Notes: a model not told the origin generated them from the letters alone. 13,352 bases of DNA from a bacterium (GCA_963663405.2 CAXXSM010000137.1:1-13352), one strand, 5' to 3'; shown: positions 1,339 through 13,352, numbered from the stretch's first letter. A program made the numbers and translations.

Positions 1339-2439
1339 ATGAAAGCCTATCACTGTTTTATTGGCTGGAATCGCATTCGCGTTTGCGGTTCAAAAACACG
1401 ATGGCGCAAGGGAATGAATACATAATTTTACACCATCCTCCCCTCCATGATTAGCACACCAAAAATAGTAAGTGATATCGCTTTTTTCACCTGATAAAAA
1501 AAATGGTGGCTACAGTGGGCGGTTCATGGAATAAAGTTTTCTTATGGGATGTAGGAACTGGAGAATTGCTAGATGAGTTAGAAGAACATGAGACAATAAT
1601 TGATATACTTGAATATTCGATGGACGGGCGATATATTGCGGTATCCGGACAGTATGGCCAGTTTTCTATTTTTGATGTTGAAAAAAAACAGAAAATGTAC
1701 CGAAAGATTTTGATACGATATGGTTCTCCTGACTACGATGAAATAGAACAAATAACGAATAATATTAAGTCGATGCTATTTTCACCTGATGGAGAGAGAC
1801 TGGTTGTGACCTTCTATCGTTGGATTTTTTGTCATAGATACGGAAACTGGTGAGACAATCCATCAATTCAGATTCGGAGAAGGTGAATATCCAGAATCAT
1901 CTTTACCTCAAGAACAGATGGAATATTTGTCGGATGGCAAGAGAATTATTGTAAGGTTTTTTCCGGGATATAGAATTATCGACACAATAACAGGTATACT
2001 CGTACGTTCTGAATATATTACGGAAAAAACCTTTTACATGTTATCGCAAGATAAAAAGAGTTTTTATTGTCTAAACAACACAAAGCCTACAGATGAATGG
2101 GAACTTCTAGAGTGGGATGTGGGAACGGGAGAATTCATAGGAAAAAAAGCGGACTTATATTTACCCAACCGGAGTGATATTTTATCCCCGGATATAAATT
2201 ATGTTCTCCATGGAAAATATAACAGTGGAGAAGCAAGTCTATCTAAAGTAAGCGATAAATCAACAGCGCTCGAGCTTACATCATTGGATCAAAACATCTT
2301 CAGCAAAGAAACCACGTGCAAAGTCTTTTCCCCCGACGGGAAAACAATCGGCTACGGCGCCGGAGGAGACGCCTACCTAATCGACATCTCCCATCTTACA
2401 TCCCATGCGGATTGGGAACTTTTCATGAATATGAACTAA
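1339..2439 (+). pseudogene. Secreted WD40-like beta-propeller protein, frameshifted as given (pseudogene or, more likely, sequencing errors); about 364 aa when restored
   Basis: AAGGAG SD near 1322-1327 and ATG at 1339. Removing one base from each of six runs (1342-1344, 1392-1396, 1440-1443, 1482-1487, 1496-1503, about 1810-1813) gives one ORF: MKPITVLLAGIAFAFAVQNTMAQ...KIVSDIAFSPDKKMVAT..., joining the 1503..1853 and 1918..2439 ORFs. Blade motifs recur: FSPDKK, YSMDGR, FSPDGE, YLSDGK, FSPDGK, and WDVGTGE twice. Confidence 0.82.
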
Positions 2440-2451
2440 TCGTTGCGGGAT

Positions 2452-3012
2452 TTACCCTTTGTCATAACGGAAAACATGTCCATCCGTGGCTGTGGGGGTG
2501 AGATTGGGGAGGGGGAACGCTTGAGCGACGACGCGGCATCCTGGTTTTAATTGGGACCAGATTTCCTTTTCAAACCGCGTCATGGCCTTTTTACCTAGAT
2601 AGCAGAAGATCACATCAGCGTTTTGTAAATCCGCCGTCCAGAAGTTTTTAAAATGAATTTCGGCTTTGCCGTATATTTTGGCTAGGATAAATAGGTATAC
2701 AGAAATCTCATACCCGATCGCCCGCGCGCTGAGGGTGGACGCTTCCCGCAGCAGCCTTCCATCACCGCAGCCCAGATCCACTACGACATCTCCCGGATGG
2801 ATCTCCGCCAGCGCGATCATGCGCCGGACTGTGGGATGATCAGTGGGTAGATAGGGCGATCCAAATAGCAAGCCATAGAGAGAGGGCAGCGTTAGGAGAA
2901 GAACCGGCGCGACAATCCACACAGCGTTCCATCCCAGCGCCGAATAGAGCGCCCATGAGAGAAAGACGGCTCCTAACAGGATAAGATATTCGATCACAAT
3001 AAAAGTCCTCAA
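2452..3012 (-). CDS. Membrane-anchored class I SAM-dependent methyltransferase (FAM173/archaeal aKMT-like)
   Basis: 186 aa with two N-terminal hydrophobic helices, then 'PYLPT', motif I 'VVDLGCGDGRLL', post-I 'IGYEIS', motif II 'ADVIFCYL' and 'LKPGCRVV'. The TTG start is uncertain. Confidence 0.85.
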   Translation of the reverse strand: MRTFIVIEYLILLGAVFLSWALYSALGWNAVWIVAPVLLLTLPSLYGLLFGSPYLPTDHPTVRRMIALAEIHPGDVVVDLGCGDGRLLREASTLSARAIGYEISVYLFILAKIYGKAEIHFKNFWTADLQNADVIFCYLGKKAMTRFEKEIWSQLKPGCRVVAQAFPLPNLTPTATDGHVFRYDKG

Positions 3013-3092
3013 GTAAATAAAATTACTCGATCGAAATCATATATGATCTTCTCAATCCATTCTCCCTTTATGAATGAACTTTTACTGATTCT

Positions 3093-4205
3093 TTACTTTC
3101 CGTCAGTCAGCCGGTGTTTAAGAAACCATTGATACAAATTGGGATCCATATACGCTCGAATCCAGGATCTATGTCCCACTCGTGGATAGATCGTAAATGT
3201 AACGTCTCCGCCCAGTTCTTTAACTTCATTGACAATCTCTTCCTGTACCTTTTTGGGAACGAGGATATCCCAACCGCCATGAAACGCCCAGATCGGTGTA
3301 TCGATTAAAGCCTCCGGTTTTGCCTTGGGAATATCGGGCGTTGTGTCGTAGAATCCCTTCGCCAAGCCCCACGCGTCTCCCCCGCCGCAGATTGGAGCCA
3401 GCGCGGCGAATCGATCCGGCTCGGCGCTTCCGAGACTCCACGATGCGAAACCTCCCATGCTGAAACCTGTTAGATAGATCCGTTTGGTATCGATCGAGTA
3501 ATGAGAGATCACCTCATCTAAAATCTCACTTAATTGATCGTTGTCCCACCATTCGTTATCAGGGCATTGCGGAGAGACTAAGACAAAATTGAAGTCGCCA
3601 CCAAAAACCTGATTCAGCGCCTGTCTATCCGCAACCAGTTTCGGAGGGCCATATTTTTTTACTCCTTTGAAATCATCTCCTCTCTCGTGCGCTCCATGAA
3701 GAAACATCATCAGCGGCCATTCCTTCTCTTCTTCACCATACGTCTTGGGGAGGTAGAGTAGATAATCGTAATGCGTATCCGACATCACCGGCGCCTGTTT
3801 TCCCGGCGCCGGGATGAAATGAGGGAGTGTGGAATCTCCAATGATTTCGATCCCATCGGCTTGCCCGGTAAAGACGGCGTCACAATCAGAATCAGTGGAA
3901 GGCGTCACAAAATATTGGAGTCTTTTCGAACCGGGAAGTGAAGCCAAATTCCACGAGATCACTCCATCCCGCAATTTCCCTTTTGAATGGACTTGATTGA
4001 CGATCCATCCATCGGGCGGAACCTCATTGACCGTGACTGTTTTCGCGTTACCGGTCAGTAAAATTTCCACCTTGAAACGTTGTTCATGTGAATACCCATT
4101 GTCTGGCAGCGTCCGCGACGCGCAAGGCGGAGCATATTCAACAGGTGTGAGATGACAAGAGAGACAGAGCGCGGTAACGAGCGCACAAAATACAAAAGTT
4201 CTCAT
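3093..4205 (-). CDS. Exported alpha/beta-hydrolase (phospholipase/carboxylesterase or predicted peptidase type) with an extra N-terminal beta-rich domain
   Basis: 370 aa with a signal peptide and possible lipobox (LCLSC). Motifs: 'YLLYLP', 'PLMMFLHGAHERG', 'VSPQCP', nucleophile elbow GFSMG, Asp in 'FHGGWD' and His in 'VGHRSW'. Confidence 0.9.
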   Translation of the reverse strand: MRTFVFCALVTALCLSCHLTPVEYAPPCASRTLPDNGYSHEQRFKVEILLTGNAKTVTVNEVPPDGWIVNQVHSKGKLRDGVISWNLASLPGSKRLQYFVTPSTDSDCDAVFTGQADGIEIIGDSTLPHFIPAPGKQAPVMSDTHYDYLLYLPKTYGEEEKEWPLMMFLHGAHERGDDFKGVKKYGPPKLVADRQALNQVFGGDFNFVLVSPQCPDNEWWDNDQLSEILDEVISHYSIDTKRIYLTGFSMGGFASWSLGSAEPDRFAALAPICGGGDAWGLAKGFYDTTPDIPKAKPEALIDTPIWAFHGGWDILVPKKVQEEIVNEVKELGGDVTFTIYPRVGHRSWIRAYMDPNLYQWFLKHRLTDGK

Positions 4206-4411: not shown

Positions 4412-4924
4412 CTAAAAACTTGCCTGAATCCGTTTCATGGGCAAAAACAATTTTCGGGGGGTATCAGGAAATGGACTAAAGCCATAGCGTTGATAAAATA
4501 CGGACGCATTTTCATTGATTGCATCAACAATCACAGCAAAAGCCCCAATGTCCTGACTATATTGCAAACTCTTATACAGAGCATCCATTAATAAAAAATC
4601 GCCGTAACCTTGCCCATGATAATTTTTATCAATGGCTAGGCGGCCAATGAGAATGGCGGGTAGAACTGGATATTTAGGAAGTTTCTTGATAATGGATTCA
4701 GGAAAATCATGAATGGGAATTCCGGTGGTTGAGAGGGTGTAATATCCAATAATGGATTTCAGATCGCTATCCATTAAAACATAAGGCGCGCAGATTTTTT
4801 TCTTACTATCTTGCTGGATGTAATGATGAAAATACGTATCCAGAGAATCCTCCCCACAGGAAAATAAATCCCTTTTGAGGCGCGAGGCTAATTTTTCAAC
4901 TCGGCATGAAGGGGAATTTGTCAC
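4412..4924 (-). CDS. GNAT-family acetyltransferase toxin (AtaT/TacT/KacT-like) of a type II TA system
   Basis: 170 aa. Motifs: 'FSCGEDSLDTYF', 'GYYTLS', 'PAILIGRLAIDKNYHGQGYG' (acetyl-CoA loop) and 'VIVDA...FYQRYGF'. Its GTG start overlaps the antitoxin stop (GTGA, 4921-4924). Confidence 0.93.
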   Translation of the reverse strand: MTNSPSCRVEKLASRLKRDLFSCGEDSLDTYFHHYIQQDSKKKICAPYVLMDSDLKSIIGYYTLSTTGIPIHDFPESIIKKLPKYPVLPAILIGRLAIDKNYHGQGYGDFLLMDALYKSLQYSQDIGAFAVIVDAINENASVFYQRYGFSPFPDTPRKLFLPMKRIQASF

Positions 4925-5208
4925 GAAATGCCTTGTTTTTCTTTGTAATTTCTGGCGGCTCTTTTCAATGTCTCATTAGGGTGCGTATCATCCTGGAGAG
5001 CCTCTACAAAAGCAAAACGATCCCGCAACGTAAGAGATAAAATCTCTTCTTCATGCAACACCTTCTTGGCCGCTTCCTGCGCGCTGTTAATAATGAAATT
5101 TGTTAACGTCATACCTTGAATCGCCGCCGCTTTGATAAACAATTCTTTTTGTTCTGCGCTAAGACGAGTATCAAAACGCTCTGTTCTTGTGGGCATGTTC
5201 GTCTCCAT
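4921..5208 (-). CDS. DUF1778-family ribbon-helix-helix antitoxin (AtaR/TacA/KacA-like)
   Basis: 'ERFDTRLSAEQKELFIKAAAIQGMTLTNFIINSAQEAAKKVL...LTLRDRFAFVEAL..PNETLKRA' is the DUF1778 pattern, and the gene sits directly upstream of the GNAT. The true start may be the ATG at 5196, which has GGAG 6 nt upstream. Confidence 0.93.
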   Translation of the reverse strand: METNMPTRTERFDTRLSAEQKELFIKAAAIQGMTLTNFIINSAQEAAKKVLHEEEILSLTLRDRFAFVEALQDDTHPNETLKRAARNYKEKQGIS

Positions 5209-6838: not shown

Positions 6839-9538
6839 TCACTTCTCTTTCTTCTTGCCCCAGACAACGATCTGATTGCCCTTACGTCCATATTCTACCA
6901 TCGTTCCAGGACACTCGAAACCGATCGCGTCAGGGGAATGAAAAACACTCATCGAGCGGGGGGGCGCGTCTGTATACACCCGCCGATTACACCAGGCCGC
7001 CGTGAGAGCGCGGCCTTTTGTATCCGCGAAGAGTTCATACGAATCTGACATTGGAGAAAATTTCGCGCGGAGATACGAGCCGTTGACCATGAGATATGTA
7101 AACCGCTTCGTTACGCGATTGCGGGAAAGAACCACGAGATCAGCGTCCGACTTGACGAATTCATTATCGATCCCTTTTCCCATATTGATTGCTATAATCT
7201 CTAAACCAGCGCGCCATTCCAACACCCGGATTCCCGGCAGTGGAAGAATCGCGTATTTCAATTCGAATTTCTCCCGCCCCCGCTGTTCGACCGTGGCGCA
7301 ATAGAAGAACGGCTCCTTGGGATTCGCCAGCTGCGCTTCAAAGAAACGGCCCATTACGCCAGTGGAATATCCCGCTTTGCGGATTGAATCGGGTGAGAAA
7401 AGAAGATTAAGAATTCCCGTTTTTTCCGTCTTGATGGCGCCAGCCCGTTCGGCGTTGCGGATAAGTTTCCATTCTTCTAAAGACATGTATTCCTCTTCTT
7501 CCTGCGCGTCTTTGGGAATGATGAAGAATGAGCCGGGGATTTCATCATCTACCGCGCTGACGCTCTCATCAGGCAATTGGACGTTGATGTATTCAATCCG
7601 CTTGGCGGAACTGGATTTCTCCGGAAAATGAGCGATCACCGAGATCGGAGGGCCGATCCCCCCTTGATGACGGTGAACGGCGATTGTCCGTCCCGTAGGT
7701 GAAAACGTATTCCAGCAGGAATAGATTGGCGTGATGAATGGAGTGGCCTCTTGTGGTGAATCAACCGAACCGGTTTCGATTAATGGGATTACGTAAGTTG
7801 ATGGCGCGATCTCTGTCGCGCTGGAAATCGATTCAGTGGAGGAGGGGATTTCATGATGCCACCGCCATTTCGTTTCATTGTCGTATGCGAAAAAACTATC
7901 GTGGTCAATCACAACCGTTCCGCCCCAGATCGTTTGTTTTGCCGCCTGTGATCCTAGCATAAACGATCCCCGTGGTGTGTGATTCGAAAACAAGGCGAAC
8001 CGATGACGGGGATAGGAGACAAAATCGGTTGTGTACTGATTGGCCCCGCTGGGCGCGGAAGGCGCATGCCAATAGAGGAATGTGTAGGGATGGGAATCTG
8101 TGTCCGCGGCGTAATCCGCCCAGACAACGCCCGCGTTCGAATCGGGATCATCCCGCGAAGCTAATAGATACAACGGCCCCCAGACCGGCGGCAGTTTTAG
8201 ATCCACCGGTTTACGCCAACCCGCTTCCCGCTCCTGAGGGGTCGGTGGTTCTTTAGGAGGCGTAAATGTCTTCGGCCGGGGCTGCATATACATTTCCAGT
8301 TGCTCCCGCAAGGTGAGCCGCCGCATGCCATCATTTAACGAATCTTTATAATCCAACGCGGAGACCGGCCCCACAAGGCCGGGATTGGGTGGAGGTTCAA
8401 TGGGAGATTCGGTTTCTTTACCCTCCTCTAATTCCGCATCCTCCTCTGGCAGAGCCGGCGGCGCCGCGACCATGAACAAGGCGCTTGAGTCCGGCGCCCA
8501 GGGATCGAGCATCGGGAACGTAATCCGTGGCAGAACGAGATGGGATGAGCCGGGAACGCGATGGGCTTCCAGCGCGGACACGATTTTCGTGTATGTTTCC
8601 TTCCGTCCGATGTGGGGGTATCCCATTCGTTTCATACATTCAATCCAGGGGATTGCAAGGTGGAGAATGGTCTCATAATACGGCAGCGGATGACGGAACT
8701 GATTATCCTCCGTCACAAGATTCTCCATCCCCTCTCGTGTAAGTGTCACCGCCCGGTATAAGTCTGGTAAAAACGTTTGAACGGCAAACAACTCGTCTTT
8801 TTCCCATTCAAAAGGATAGACCGAGATGCAGAATAGAGCGGTCATTCCCAGCGCGGCTCCTAACAGCGTTTTCTCTTCCGGTGAAAACCTGTCCGGTTCG
8901 GATGTGGAGCAAAAAACCGACAGCCGGTTGAGGATTCGCTTAAACCGTTGGTTGGGATCATGCCGGTCGATTGTGTCGATGCGGTTATAGATCGTATCGT
9001 AAAGGATCACATCCAACGCAAGCAGCGCCGCCTGCCGGGCGTCAAATTCAATGACGGGAAAACCCATTTCCGAGATCGATTCTTGGGGTTCGAAATAATC
9101 CAGCAACCGGTAGAATTCGATCTGCAATCCTTTCTCAGCCCATTTTTCCTGTTTCAGTCCATATTCACACGCTATCTCGCAGAGCGCCTGGGTATAGGCG
9201 GCCATATTTTCATCGTTCAGAAATTTGGGATTGAAGGTATCACTTTCATCAAACGGTCCCTCACCCAGCCAGCCGGGTGATTCTTTGTCAACGTACGCTT
9301 CCACTCGATCCCGGAACTCATCCCTTCGTTCTTCGAAAAATGGTTTGTTGATTAAATTGCGTGTTTTTCTAAAATGAATCCGATCCGCCAGGAGAAGGGG
9401 ATGGCCCCTTTCTTGGATGCGGGTGATAATCCGGTCCGGCACGGGAGGAATGATATCACTGGGTTGAGCGCATTCCGTCCTATGGCTGGTTATGATAACG
9501 AGAGCAATGATGAGGAATTTCAACATTCGATGGAACAT
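6839..9538 (-). CDS. Large exported hypothetical protein, possibly a heparinase II/III-like (alpha/alpha toroid + beta-sandwich) fold with a Pro/Glu-rich insertion
   Basis: 899-aa uninterrupted ORF with an N-terminal signal peptide (MFHRMLKFLIIALVIITS...ECA). It has an early 'HPLLL' motif, a helical first half and a beta-rich second half ending 'SDADLVVL...YLMVNGSYL'. The ORF is secure and the fold assignment is tentative. Confidence 0.75.
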   Translation of the reverse strand: MFHRMLKFLIIALVIITSHRTECAQPSDIIPPVPDRIITRIQERGHPLLLADRIHFRKTRNLINKPFFEERRDEFRDRVEAYVDKESPGWLGEGPFDESDTFNPKFLNDENMAAYTQALCEIACEYGLKQEKWAEKGLQIEFYRLLDYFEPQESISEMGFPVIEFDARQAALLALDVILYDTIYNRIDTIDRHDPNQRFKRILNRLSVFCSTSEPDRFSPEEKTLLGAALGMTALFCISVYPFEWEKDELFAVQTFLPDLYRAVTLTREGMENLVTEDNQFRHPLPYYETILHLAIPWIECMKRMGYPHIGRKETYTKIVSALEAHRVPGSSHLVLPRITFPMLDPWAPDSSALFMVAAPPALPEEDAELEEGKETESPIEPPPNPGLVGPVSALDYKDSLNDGMRRLTLREQLEMYMQPRPKTFTPPKEPPTPQEREAGWRKPVDLKLPPVWGPLYLLASRDDPDSNAGVVWADYAADTDSHPYTFLYWHAPSAPSGANQYTTDFVSYPRHRFALFSNHTPRGSFMLGSQAAKQTIWGGTVVIDHDSFFAYDNETKWRWHHEIPSSTESISSATEIAPSTYVIPLIETGSVDSPQEATPFITPIYSCWNTFSPTGRTIAVHRHQGGIGPPISVIAHFPEKSSSAKRIEYINVQLPDESVSAVDDEIPGSFFIIPKDAQEEEEYMSLEEWKLIRNAERAGAIKTEKTGILNLLFSPDSIRKAGYSTGVMGRFFEAQLANPKEPFFYCATVEQRGREKFELKYAILPLPGIRVLEWRAGLEIIAINMGKGIDNEFVKSDADLVVLSRNRVTKRFTYLMVNGSYLRAKFSPMSDSYELFADTKGRALTAAWCNRRVYTDAPPRSMSVFHSPDAIGFECPGTMVEYGRKGNQIVVWGKKKEK

Positions 9539-9694: not shown

Positions 9695-10456
9695 ATGGAT
9701 ACTGTTATGAAAACTCTCCTCGCTAAAAAACTGAGCGGAATCGATGTGTTCACGATTGGCGTAATCGCGCTCGCGTTGATTGTGGGGTGGACTTTTTACG
9801 CGCATTCAGGAGTGAACGAGCAAGTGCTGAACAAATTGCGTCAACGGATGGTCGACCGGCAGATTCAAGGCAGGGGAGTGAAAGACAACAACGTGCTCGC
9901 CGTCATGCGCAAAGTGGAACGTCACAAGTTCGTTCCCGAAGATATGATCCGCTACGCGTACGATGACAATCCTCTGCCGATTGGTGAAGGCCAAACCATC
10001 TCTCAACCGTATATCGTAGCGTTAATGACCGAACTGCTGAAACTGAAGAAAACGGATACCGTTCTGGAGATTGGGACCGGGTCCGGCTATCAAGCGGCGG
10101 TGTTGGGCGAATTGGCGAAAGAGGTCTATACTATCGAGATTGTGGAAAAACTAGGCAAGCGCTCCAAGGAACTGCTCGAATCGCTGGGCTATAAAAATAT
10201 CCATGTCAAAATCGGTGACGGCTACCAGGGATGGCCTGAAGAAGCCCCATTCGACGCCGTCATCGTCACCGCCGCGCCCGACCATATCCCCCAGCCATTA
10301 GTCGATCAGTTGAAAGAAGGCGGCCGCATGGTAATCCCCGTCGGAAAAACCTACCAGGAACTGATCTTGATTTCCAAAACCGAAAAGGGAACCCAGAAAA
10401 AAGATATCATTCCTGTGCGGTTTGTGCCTATGACGGGGGAAGCGGGGGAACGGTGA
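9695..10456 (+). CDS. pcm: Protein-L-isoaspartate(D-aspartate) O-methyltransferase with an N-terminal hydrophobic segment
   Basis: Motifs: 'AYDDNPLPIGEGQTISQPYIVALM', 'VLEIGTGSGYQAAVL', 'GDGYQGWPEEAPFDAVIVTAA', 'QLKEGGRMVIPVG' and 'VRFVPM'. AAGGAG SD at 9682-9687. Confidence 0.96.
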   Translation: MDTVMKTLLAKKLSGIDVFTIGVIALALIVGWTFYAHSGVNEQVLNKLRQRMVDRQIQGRGVKDNNVLAVMRKVERHKFVPEDMIRYAYDDNPLPIGEGQTISQPYIVALMTELLKLKKTDTVLEIGTGSGYQAAVLGELAKEVYTIEIVEKLGKRSKELLESLGYKNIHVKIGDGYQGWPEEAPFDAVIVTAAPDHIPQPLVDQLKEGGRMVIPVGKTYQELILISKTEKGTQKKDIIPVRFVPMTGEAGER

Positions 10457-10460
10457 ATTC

Positions 10461-10488
10461 TCCGCTATAATAATAGTGGATTATTTCT
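10461..10488 (+). terminator. Probable intrinsic terminator of pcm
   Basis: Stem TCCGCTAT (10461-10468) pairs with ATAGTGGA (10473-10480), with one G-U pair and a 4-nt loop. It is followed by TTATTTCT and begins 4 nt after the pcm stop. Confidence 0.55.
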
Positions 10489-10495
10489 CATTGGA

Positions 10496-10553
10496 TTGTA
10501 ACGTGATATCTTAAACAGTATAAGTATTTTATTCTTGAATAAACAGTGTTTAT
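10496..10553 (+). promoter_or_regulatory. Candidate promoter and operator palindromes for the two-gene PIN module
   Basis: TTGTAA (10496-10501), 17 nt, TATAAG (10519-10524). Downstream are two overlapping palindromes, TTTATTC-tt-GAATAAA (10528-10543) and ATAAACA-g-TGTTTAT (10539-10553). The region is AT-rich, so chance matches are possible. Confidence 0.45.
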
Positions 10554-11379
10554 CATCATGAATGCGAATAGTGAGATTAGAATAGAGACTTTCGGTCATA
10601 CCGCTGAAATGTCCGCCCAAGACATCTCTGATATCCTGTTGGGTGTCACAGACGCCTTGCGTTATCTTTCCAGTGAAATTGACAAGGATATGAACGATGA
10701 TGAGTGGATCATAAATTATTTATCCATGCAATCACCACTTCTTGCTTGCGTTATATACAAAAGTGATAACAAGATAGGGTGCGAAACCAGAAAAGATTTT
10801 TTTCAAGGATTGGAATGTATACAATCAGGAAAAGAATTACCGATATTTTTTAACAAAAAAATCCTACAATCTATAAAAAAAGTATGTAACGTCGGACAGA
10901 AAATAAACGGCCAAATTAAAATATCTTCCGGTGAATATTGTTGTGTAATATCGACAAAGGAATTTGCCGCCAATCTGGAATCGATACTTAAAAAACTCGA
11001 GAGAACATTCCACTATGAATGGACTACTTTAATTGGTCAATTACAAGATGTTGATAGTAAGGATAAAAAAAGCGATCATGAACCTTGTTTATATTTATAC
11101 TCTAAATTGTATAATAATACTATAATATGCTATTTTAATGGTAAAATGTTCGAAGAAATTCGAGACAATCTTCAATTCAATCCGATCGATGTATCGATCT
11201 TTGGGAAAGTAAAATTTGATAAATACAATCAACCAGTAGAAATTGTTGAAATAACGCAATACAAAATACTGAAACCAAAAGTTAAATTTTCTGAAATAAA
11301 ACCGCATGGAATTTTAGATTTAACGGGGAGTGTTGATTCTGTTGATTATATCCAACAGGTTCGACAGGGTCATGAGTGA
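10546..11379 (+). CDS. Hypothetical protein, putative large antitoxin/partner of the downstream PIN protein
   Basis: 277-aa AT-rich ORF whose likelier start is the ATG at 10558. It has an alpha/beta N-terminal part, a beta-rich OB-like C-terminal part and the tail 'ILDLTGSVDSVDYIQQVRQ'. Its stop overlaps the next start (GTGATG, 11376-11381). Confidence 0.8.
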   Translation: MFIIMNANSEIRIETFGHTAEMSAQDISDILLGVTDALRYLSSEIDKDMNDDEWIINYLSMQSPLLACVIYKSDNKIGCETRKDFFQGLECIQSGKELPIFFNKKILQSIKKVCNVGQKINGQIKISSGEYCCVISTKEFAANLESILKKLERTFHYEWTTLIGQLQDVDSKDKKSDHEPCLYLYSKLYNNTIICYFNGKMFEEIRDNLQFNPIDVSIFGKVKFDKYNQPVEIVEITQYKILKPKVKFSEIKPHGILDLTGSVDSVDYIQQVRQGHE

Positions 11380-11930
11380 TGAGGATTACAGATTCGAAGC
11401 GAGTATTATGGGATACATGCATTGTTATCGATTTTATACAAATTATGCACAATCGGAATAATATATCTATTCCAAACAGCGATACAAAGTATTTTCATTC
11501 CATCTTAAAGATTTGGGATAAATATGAAAGAGGTGATATTGATATCTTTTGTTCGACGTTGGCAATCGTCGAGGCTGTGCATTTAAAAGGTATATTACCG
11601 CCAATGCAAGTTAAATATATTTTGGATTTTTTTGATTCCATACGGGATTCTGTAATCGCGGTTGGTATAGAAATAGCAATAAGAGCAAATCAAATTAGAA
11701 ATCTTAGTAATATAAGTCTTTGTCAATATGATTCGATTCATCTAGGCACAGCGCAAGTTATGAACTGCAATATAGTAATTACAAGAGACAACAAGAAACC
11801 AAGACCTTTCTTAGCAAGAGATAATCAGCACAAAACAGATAATGGAAACCGCATTAGAATATTAAAGCCGGAAGATTATATTGAAAAATGTGAAGTAGAG
11901 TTAAAAGTGGAACAAGAGGAAAAAGAATAG
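11376..11930 (+). CDS. PIN-domain (VapC-like) ribonuclease
   Basis: All four PIN acidic positions are present: 'VLWDTCIVI' (D), 'STLAIVEA' (E), 'YDSIHLGTA' (D) and 'VITRD' (D). The start is GTG 11376 or ATG 11379. Confidence 0.88.
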   Translation: MMRITDSKRVLWDTCIVIDFIQIMHNRNNISIPNSDTKYFHSILKIWDKYERGDIDIFCSTLAIVEAVHLKGILPPMQVKYILDFFDSIRDSVIAVGIEIAIRANQIRNLSNISLCQYDSIHLGTAQVMNCNIVITRDNKKPRPFLARDNQHKTDNGNRIRILKPEDYIEKCEVELKVEQEEKE

Positions 11931-12011
11931 GATATATTCAAGAATTTGAGATTGTCTTTCTTTACTAACAAGACAACTCTTGACAGATTTCTCGAAGATC
12001 ACTTTTTCCAT

Positions 12012-12082
12012 TTGATATTATTTTTAAAATTTCTGATAATGATAATAAAATGCGATCGTTAACATCTCCATTTAAACGATCG
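12012..12082 (+). promoter_or_regulatory. Candidate promoter and leader hairpin for the epimerase operon
   Basis: TTGATA (12012-12017), 17 nt, GATAAT (12035-12040). An inverted repeat CGATCGTT (12053-12060) / AACGATCG (12075-12082) lies in the leader. Confidence 0.4.
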
Positions 12083-12102
12083 ATCTGCGATGGTTGAGGC
12101 TT

Positions 12103-13116
12103 ATGAATGATTCTCTCTATGAACGGCGGTTTGCTGACCGGAGTGTTCTAATCACTGGTGGGATAGGCTTTGTGGGGTCGAATCTTGCGATCCGGCTGGT
12201 CTCGCTGGGCGCTCGTGTTACATTGCTGGATAATATGCTCCCCCTATATGGGGGGAATCTATTCAATATCGAAAGCATAAAAGACCGCGTACATGTTAAT
12301 TTCTGCGATGTGCGCGACCGGCCTTCGATCGAGTATCTTGTGAAGGGGCAGGAATACATCTTTCATCTGGCGGGGCAGGTCAGCCACGTTGACAGCGTCC
12401 TCGATCCATTCACCGATGTGGATATAAACGTGAATGGAACCCTCGCCGTTCTTGAGGCCTGCCGCCAATACAATCCGGCCGCGAAGATTATCTTCACCGG
12501 CACACGTGGGCAGTACGGTTCTTCGATAACGCTTCCTGTGAACGAAGACGCGCCCACCAATCCCAAAGGGATCTATGCGATCACCAATCTCGCCGCCGAG
12601 AAGATTATCCTGATGTACCACAACGTCCATCAGCTGCCGGTGTCTGCCTGCGCATCACGAACACCTATGGACCGCGCCACCATATGAAGCATAACCGCTA
12701 CGGCGTCGTCAATTGGTTCATCCGCATCGCGCTCGAAAATGAAACGATCCCGATCATGGGTGATGGCAAGATTATACGGATTATCTGTACATTGATGATC
12801 TGGTGGACGCGTTGCTCACGACCGCCGCATGTGAAGAGGCGTATGGGCAAATCTTCAATGTGGGCACTGAAAACCTACCGATTTCAATCAATTGGGGGAA
12901 GCCATTGTCCGGATTGCGGGTTCAGGCTGCTGCGCTTTCGCTCCGTTTTCCAAAGAACGGAAACATGTCGAACCAGGGCATTACTACGCGGACATAACTA
13001 AAATCCAATCGCAGCTGGGATGGGAACCGCGCGTCTCTCTCGAAGAGGGGCTCAGCCGGACCATCGAGTTTTACCGCCGGAACCGGGAACACTATTGGAG
13101 GACGGAACATGCGTGA
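12103..13116 (+). pseudogene. NAD-dependent epimerase/dehydratase (extended SDR), frameshifted as given (probably sequencing errors); about 338 aa when restored
   Basis: 'VLITGGIGFVGSNL' and 'IFHLAGQVS' are present. Adding one base at each of 12639-12640, 12778-12779 and about 12869-12873 restores 'CLRITNTYGPR', 'RDYLYIDDLVDA' and 'FNVGTGKPT', leading into '[22 protein letters not shown]'. This joins the ORFs at 12094, 12684, 12803 and 12892. Confidence 0.88.
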
Positions 13117-13352
13117 AATGCCCGTCCTCGTCACTGCGGTTGGATCAACCACCGCGCTCTCCGTTATCAAGGGACTGCGCGCGCAGGAGGAATATCCAGT
13201 ACGCGTCATAGGCACGGATACTCACTCCCCACCGGATATTGCGGGCTCAACCTTTTGCGACACCTTTTACACTGTCCATCCTGCGTCGCATCCCGATTAC
13301 TTTACCCAGCTGTTGGAAATCGCTTCCTATGAAAGCGCGCGGGTATTGATTC
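13109..13352 (+). CDS. ATP-grasp protein (CarB/PylC-like N-terminal domain), 3' truncated by window edge
   Basis: Not in the ORF track. GGAGG SD at 13097-13101, and the ATG at 13109 overlaps the epimerase end. It reads [37 protein letters not shown]...[37 protein letters not shown], the pre-ATP-grasp pattern common in polysaccharide loci. Confidence 0.8.

Follow-up and report, generated by a model that had tools for sequence, protein, structure and literature searches.

A VapC-type PIN nuclease gene paired with a long, antitoxin-like partner of an unnamed family: a candidate toxin-antitoxin-like operon found in relatives beside IS1595 transposase genes

The closest described systems to the locus analysed here are the VapBC toxin-antitoxin modules, in which a PIN-domain toxin with four acidic residues is encoded next to a co-oriented antitoxin gene. 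VapB antitoxins are typically shorter than about 100 amino acids (aa) and carry a DNA-binding domain of the RHH, AbrB, Phd or HTH type. We analysed a stretch of 13,352 nucleotides (nt) of bacterial DNA (GCA_963663405.2 CAXXSM010000137.1:1-13352; hereafter the window), which makes up the whole of contig C137 in a draft genome of 8.44 Mb. It contains a two-gene unit consisting of open reading frame 1 (ORF1) and a PIN gene directly downstream. A preliminary description, made from the DNA sequence, had proposed this unit as an undescribed toxin-antitoxin or defence system. Our results suggest that the pair is probably a toxin-antitoxin-like operon of an unnamed family, in which a long-form antitoxin and a PIN toxin travel together as mobile selfish cargo.

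The locus resembles VapBC on several counts. Its PIN protein has the four acidic residues, and its partner gene lies 5' in the same orientation with a one-base overlap, an arrangement that recurs in 26 of 27 loci. The distribution is patchy and multi-copy, with toxin genes decaying first, and a short C-terminal segment of ORF1 aligns in register with the tails of small VapB-like proteins of the phylum. The differences lie mostly in the partner. At 273 aa, versus fewer than about 100 aa, ORF1 is not the small protein with a DNA-binding domain that is expected of an antitoxin; it is predicted to combine a ferredoxin-like domain with an OB fold, whereas RHH, AbrB, Phd and HTH domains are lacking. 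In addition, the PIN protein of this locus bears a C-terminal extension of about 45 aa.

Tn3-family transposons reportedly carry toxin-antitoxin pairs inside them. Like those pairs, the module described here can adjoin a mobile element's transposition gene, but the element belongs to the IS1595 family and the antitoxin-like gene represents a new type. A PIN RNase has also been paired with a ParA-linked "HelixGK" protein, named for a novel domain that combines helices with a Greek-key beta-sheet (bioRxiv 10.64898/2026.10.19.760177). The accessible part of that report describes a partner that could fit an OB-containing protein, a comparison made by description only. Our loci differ in that no ParA-type family occurred among the Pfam matches of 88 neighbouring ORFs, and the neighbours in the window are pcm and an epimerase gene. 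The PIN subfamilies PIN.4 to PIN.7 are placed in atypical contexts with unknown function in the accessible text of a PIN classification (PMC5499597), and neither that text nor the accessible part of the NetFlax study (PMC10440598) mentions an OB-fold partner of PIN. The suggestion that the system is undescribed agreed with the databases, since no family of PADLOC-DB v2.0.0 matched either protein at E <= 1 and none in Pfam or NCBIfam could be assigned to ORF1.

The two genes and the parts of their products are located as follows.

10558..11379, + strand: ORF1, long antitoxin-like partner of an unnamed family (273 aa)
10558..11004, + strand: N-terminal alpha/beta domain of ORF1, a ferredoxin-like sandwich in the structural model (residues 1-149)
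11008..11280, + strand: OB fold of ORF1, of SSB/RPA/anticodon-binding type in the structural model (residues 151-241)
11317..11364, + strand: C-terminal tail motif of ORF1, DLTGSVDSVDYIQQVR (residues 254-269), with a helix at 261-269 and a near-invariant R269
11379..11930, + strand: VapC-type PIN nuclease (183 aa) with D12, E65, D118 and D137 and a C-terminal extension of about 45 aa

The ATG codons at 10558 and 11379 were chosen as starts because they agree with the N-termini of homologues in alignments. The start at 10546 given in the preliminary description is an in-frame GTG upstream of the homologue-matching ATG. The TGATG overlap reported there is present, with the ORF1 stop (TGA, 11377-11379) and the PIN start (ATG, 11379-11381) having one base in common, and every peptide that it quoted is found in the ORF1 translation.

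Judged from its sequence, the product of the second gene is a VapC-type PIN domain. This assignment was made because the acidic quartet is conserved and because PF01850 is matched by all 13 of the aligned PIN partners (best E 7.6e-14), these being the proteins encoded directly 3' of ORF1 relatives. In the 13-sequence alignment D12 and E65 are invariant, while D118 and D137 are each conserved in at least 90% of sequences, bearing out the earlier statement that all four catalytic acidic residues are present. The C-terminal extension of about 45 residues is common to the closer relatives. A word-based homologue search with the PIN protein returned one relative only, and a sequence search of solved structures with it gave nothing useful.

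We assessed how consistently the two genes occur together by searching 35 species genomes of the phylum and a sample of 301 Planctomycetota, with further loci (3 from genomes and 13 from metagenomes) obtained from a 12-sequence subset of ORF1 relatives. The ORF1 family was patchily distributed, being present in 11 of the 35 phylum genomes and matched in 11 of the 301 sampled Planctomycetota. The genome of the window has the complete pair a second time, on another contig (C3), with 38% identity for ORF1 and 52% for PIN. Among 29 loci with a full-length ORF1 relative, 27 were assessable, and 26 of these had a PIN gene or PIN remnant immediately 3' on the same strand; the remaining locus (L018) had none. 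Searching the 35 phylum genomes from the PIN side recovered 15 sites at E <= 1e-28, with an ORF1-family gene directly 5' in 14, and the single PIN site lacking such a partner (L092) is itself interrupted by a stop codon. The obligate pairing that had been put forward earlier as a check on the proposal is therefore nearly complete, at 26/27 from the ORF1 side and 14/15 from the PIN side. Furthermore, ORF1 and PIN protein distances were correlated across 23 pairs (r = 0.85), a value reached by none of 2000 permutations. This correlation indicates that the genes are inherited together as a unit, and by itself it is not a sign of binding. That ORF1 is an unrelated hypothetical gene lying beside a solitary PIN gene, without functional coupling, is very improbable given the pairing counts from both sides, the overlapping or abutting frames and the value of r.

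Where the pair has deteriorated, damage falls on the PIN gene. The PIN gene is reduced to an 85-aa fragment beside an intact ORF1 in L008, split into two pieces in L016 and shortened in L019, with ORF1 intact in both, and L018 retains an intact ORF1 in the absence of any PIN gene. In the second copy within the same genome, a stop codon removes the C-terminal extension of PIN. Such asymmetric decay, with a broken PIN and an intact partner, is what a toxin-antidote relationship would predict. At three loci the OB fold and tail alone make up a short protein with no PIN gene beside it (L025, 2935-3351; L067, 1575-1943; L069, 289-951); these proteins may be left over from decayed pairs.

The tail is the best-conserved stretch of the ORF1 family, with the consensus DITGGxDSxEYVRxLRD; T256, a Gly column at 258 and R269 are each conserved in at least 90% of members. 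A distant branch of proteins of ~310-380 aa has the middle and OB regions in common with ORF1, with G.WPGDE.DEE...AL..LS as its tail instead. At eight of the 11 loci of this branch, the next gene encodes a canonical PIN of another, shorter kind (137-157 aa; Pfam E 1e-11 to 1e-17). A different tail thus goes with a different PIN subfamily, so that tail type tracks toxin type. Small antitoxins (75-131 aa) are encoded upstream of canonical VapC genes in this phylum, and their tails take the form ..EAD.FIR.ERD.WD. As a separate observation, two places on one 110-kb metagenome contig (L070 and L071, 2306-2590) encode a 94-aa protein that has the family's tail motif only (..IDITGGQDSAEYVRELRDGD). 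The ORF after it is small and winged-helix-like, not a PIN gene, and the surrounding 5 kb is apparently duplicated on that contig.

Homologues of ORF1 were difficult to recognise. A word-index search with ORF1 retrieved only the query, Pfam and PADLOC gave no match, and NCBIfam and PHROG gave only weak and implausible rows (E 0.083 and 0.018, respectively). An exhaustive HMMER search identified 115 cluster representatives at E <= 1e-3, of which 16 remained at E <= 1e-10 and 4, the query included, at E <= 1e-30. Members are mostly ~250-300 aa and alignable over most of the query. None of 60 aligned members had a meaningful Pfam match, although two of the 60 touched tRNA_anti-codon, an OB model, and neither ORF1 nor 70 further relatives could be given a Pfam or NCBIfam domain. 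Names were blank for eight of nine family representatives and "hypothetical protein" for the ninth. Searching the sequences of solved structures with ORF1 and with its family profile gave nothing useful. These alignments indicate that ORF1 belongs to a real, unnamed family. As had been noted by eye, ORF1 is far longer than a classical VapB, and the profile libraries yielded no RHH, AbrB, Phd or HTH match.

An AlphaFold model of ORF1 built on the 60-sequence alignment had a predicted local distance difference test score (pLDDT) of 89.9 and a predicted template modelling score (pTM) of 0.72. Residues 1-149 are predicted to form a ferredoxin-like alpha/beta sandwich, with pLDDT 93.4 and pTM 0.88 when modelled alone. 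Foldseek retrieved nothing for this domain by itself at E <= 1e-3, and its best VIA Z score was 5.6, to ACT- and ferredoxin-like rows; in the model its arrangement appears generic, and no family can be named. The OB-fold-like region of the preliminary description corresponds to a predicted five-stranded OB barrel at residues 151-241. Its best structural match was 4dam_A (Z 8.8, root-mean-square deviation 4.1, 89 residues aligned), and nine chains scored Z >= 8, with many SSB, RPA, PriB and MCM-N rows at Z 7-8.4. The top Foldseek rows for this fold were anticodon-binding domains of tRNA synthetases. Aromatic and basic positions are conserved in the OB domain, making single-strand binding a candidate function. 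The barrel is followed by a linker of low confidence (residues 241-260, pLDDT 57-70) and then by the short helix at 261-269.

The pair lies within a sharply AT-rich segment, as had been described: the guanine-cytosine (GC) fraction is 0.30-0.36 over 10601-12200 (1.6 kb) and 0.46-0.53 in the flanks. Its 5' neighbour is pcm (Pfam PCMT, E 1.1e-66), which ends with a stop at 10456, and its 3' neighbour is an NAD-dependent epimerase/dehydratase gene. Features bordering the pair are the following.

10461..10480, + strand: terminator-like hairpin after pcm, with an 8-pair stem and then a T-run, at the left border of the AT-rich segment
10496..10524, + strand: candidate promoter, TTGTAA (10496-10501), 17 nt and TATAAG (10519-10524), seen by eye only
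10531..10541, unstranded: left arm of an inverted repeat, ATTCTTGAATA, an 11-nt perfect repeat that brackets the pair
11935..11945, unstranded: right arm of the same 11-nt perfect inverted repeat, TATTCAAGAAT

The preliminary description had credited the pair with its own promoter. A promoter scan did not bear this out, showing no + strand site between pcm and ORF1 (10457-10557); the by-eye candidate is missing from the scan because its second hexamer lacks the final T. An inverted repeat as long as the one in the window was reached in 2 of 200 shuffles. None of 22 other loci tested had an inverted repeat bracketing the pair, and the meaning of the 11-nt repeat is uncertain.

The pair is horizontally acquired. 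At the pcm loci of 17 relatives it was found in none within 1.5 kb on each side of pcm, while the gene 5' of pcm was conserved in 13 of them. The absence of the pair from these loci points to a local insertion, with which the low GC agrees. Among 25 assessable loci, 10 had an IS1595-family transposase gene or remnant directly 5' of ORF1 on the same strand, as determined with a Pfam scan extended by tblastn (L008, L022, L012, L009, L010, L091, L024, L060, L063 and L065). The transposase gene is separated at its C-terminal end from ORF1 by 15-66 nt, except in L065, where that end overlaps the called ORF1 start. Only the transposase of L008 is clearly intact (297 aa). Those of L060 and L063 run into a contig end, and the remainder are truncated or pseudogenised, with several in-frame stops in L022. 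Terminal inverted repeats around transposase and pair were weak candidates at best (L022, 18 nt, 83%; L008, 19 nt, 84%; L063, 21 nt, 95%).

This recurrent adjacency suggests that the pair is transposon cargo. Literature searches on IS1595 with passenger genes or toxin-antitoxin pairs yielded no description of the ORF1-PIN pair. The linkage is new information that favours the selfish-cargo reading, and it speaks for selfish transposon cargo no less than for defence. Across the wider neighbourhoods, a Pfam scan of the 88 ORFs matched mostly metabolic genes; the other matches were a handful of restriction or methylase genes, a further PIN gene, a reverse-transcriptase fragment and an IS1-like transposase. 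In L063, the 95% complementary inverted repeat of 21 nt (127-147 and 3879-3899) spans the whole block, and a fused gene for a DNA methylase (N6_N4_Mtase) and an Mrr-type nuclease lies directly 3' of the pair (2107-3294).

In the toxin-antitoxin-like operon that we regard as probable, the downstream VapC-type PIN ribonuclease would be the toxin and the upstream ORF1, at 273 aa, a long form of antitoxin. The two proteins would bind each other, with the conserved C-terminal helix and its near-invariant Arg sitting, on a flexible linker, in the active-site groove of a toxic PIN protein and neutralising it. The ferredoxin-like N-domain and the SSB-type OB fold would take the place of the classical VapB DNA-binding domain, and this body may have a ligand of its own. 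The module would be mobile, selfish cargo: relatives often carry it behind an IS1595 transposase gene, whose decay it outlasts, and this genome has a transposase-less copy inserted after pcm. At the level of sequence, ORF1 appears to have the genetic behaviour of an antitoxin, and the toxin and operon sides of the locus look like those of VapBC.

Several results weigh against the toxin-antitoxin-like operon. The PIN protein of the window falls below the PF01850 cut-off, scoring 19.6 bits versus 23.6. Pairing counts overstate independence because many of the counted loci come from kin genomes, with L024 and L065 being 93% identical. There is no IS1595 transposase gene or remnant next to the pair in the window. 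With a mean net charge of +0.4, the OB domain cannot be called clearly basic, and in the window ORF1 has lost two of its conserved basic or aromatic positions (L178 and D211). Plasmid and phage collections, searched by tblastn with two family members, and viral contigs gave no match, though addiction modules are common on plasmids and phages. Lastly, the likeness between the ORF1 tail and those of small VapB-like antitoxins, which the preliminary description had seen, survives only in part. Compared profile to profile over whole proteins, the ORF1 family and the small VapB-like antitoxins of the phylum matched with a probability of 1.3%. When the tails alone were compared, the motifs aligned in register with a score of 13.3 (P 0.009, reached by 0 of 100 column shuffles), a modest result that lends weak support because the test was chosen after the tails had been seen.

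A first alternative is that ORF1 is a sensor-antitoxin for phage defence. Its N-domain and OB fold would detect phage nucleic acid or protein, such as single-stranded DNA (ssDNA) or an SSB-like protein, and free the tail, so that the RNase aborts infection. We consider this unlikely, and the idea of sensing and abortive infection is speculation. The SSB/RPA type of the OB fold speaks for it, as does the resemblance of the full ORF1 model to phage proteins in BFVD, where Foldseek matches included a 270-aa protein that is uncharacterised (E 3.4e-10, TMq 0.53) as well as one with DUF6575 (PF20215; E 1.2e-8, but TMq 0.36). DUF6575 was also the nearest named Atlas cluster (0.78-0.79), with a template modelling score of only 0.46. 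In the accessible text of a study of experimentally selected E. coli anti-phage systems, this domain is listed among their domains (PMC9519451), which is a lead and not a test. On the other hand, DUF6575 had no Pfam match at E <= 0.01 in any of 60 + 11 ORF1-family members (0/71), and neither protein of the pair matched a PADLOC model. Restriction or methylase genes adjoin the pair at a few loci (L063, L032 and L036), but matched neighbours were mostly metabolic.

A related proposal joins sensing to transposition. The pair would be a transposon-borne conflict module spread by IS1595, in which the OB and N-domain body reads single-stranded nucleic acid arising in phage replication or transposition and the tethered tail releases the PIN RNase, a sensor-antitoxin unlike named toxin-antitoxin or defence families. 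We hold this to be rather improbable.

OB folds of the SSB and anticodon-binding type bind single-stranded nucleic acids. The pair could accordingly be imagined as a two-subunit nucleic-acid-processing enzyme, with the OB protein bringing RNA, tRNA or ssDNA to PIN, possibly as an accessory to IS1595-type transposition. The anticodon-binding domains among the best Foldseek rows, the conserved aromatic and basic positions and the tight same-strand linkage of the transposase in 10 of 25 loci would all suit such an enzyme. However, the pair is intact in the 15 of 25 assessable loci that lack a transposase remnant, the window among them, and transposase genes adjacent to the pair are mostly truncated or pseudogenised. 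A broken PIN beside an intact partner suits an antidote better than an obligate cofactor, and an enzyme of this kind offers no obvious role for a conserved tail on a flexible linker. We find it doubtful that the pair works in this way.

Elsewhere in the window, a second toxin-antitoxin pair is encoded on the - strand (4412-5208), where a gene for a TacA-like antitoxin (PF08681, E 2.4e-22; 4921-5208) overlaps one for a GNAT acetyltransferase (4412-4924) in another lower-GC stretch (0.39-0.42). A further AT-rich segment (1201-2400, + strand, GC 0.36-0.38) is accompanied by two ORFs, one of 116 aa (1503-1853) that weakly matches WD40 and beta-propeller families and one of 173 aa (1918-2439) with no Pfam match. 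An 899-aa ORF on the - strand (6839-9538) also had no Pfam match, and its homologue adjoins pcm in 13 of the 17 relatives examined at that locus. Downstream of the pair, within 12094-13351 (+ strand), the epimerase/dehydratase ORF is only 197 aa long and spans no more than profile positions 1-176 of 332; in other frames it is followed by ORFs with no Pfam match (12684-13001 and 13109-13351). This gene looks frameshifted, broken or affected by an assembly error.

Because Pfam, NCBIfam and PADLOC do not name the ORF1 family, genome annotation currently misses it. That the pair recurs directly behind IS1595 transposase genes suggests a role for small insertion sequences, beside Tn3 transposons and plasmids, as carriers of such modules. 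If ORF1 is an antitoxin, it would represent a new architecture for PIN/VapBC modules, in which a ferredoxin-like domain and an OB fold replace the DNA-binding head while a VapB-like tail is kept. The family would then offer a clean test case for the swapping of antitoxin bodies while the toxin-binding tail persists.

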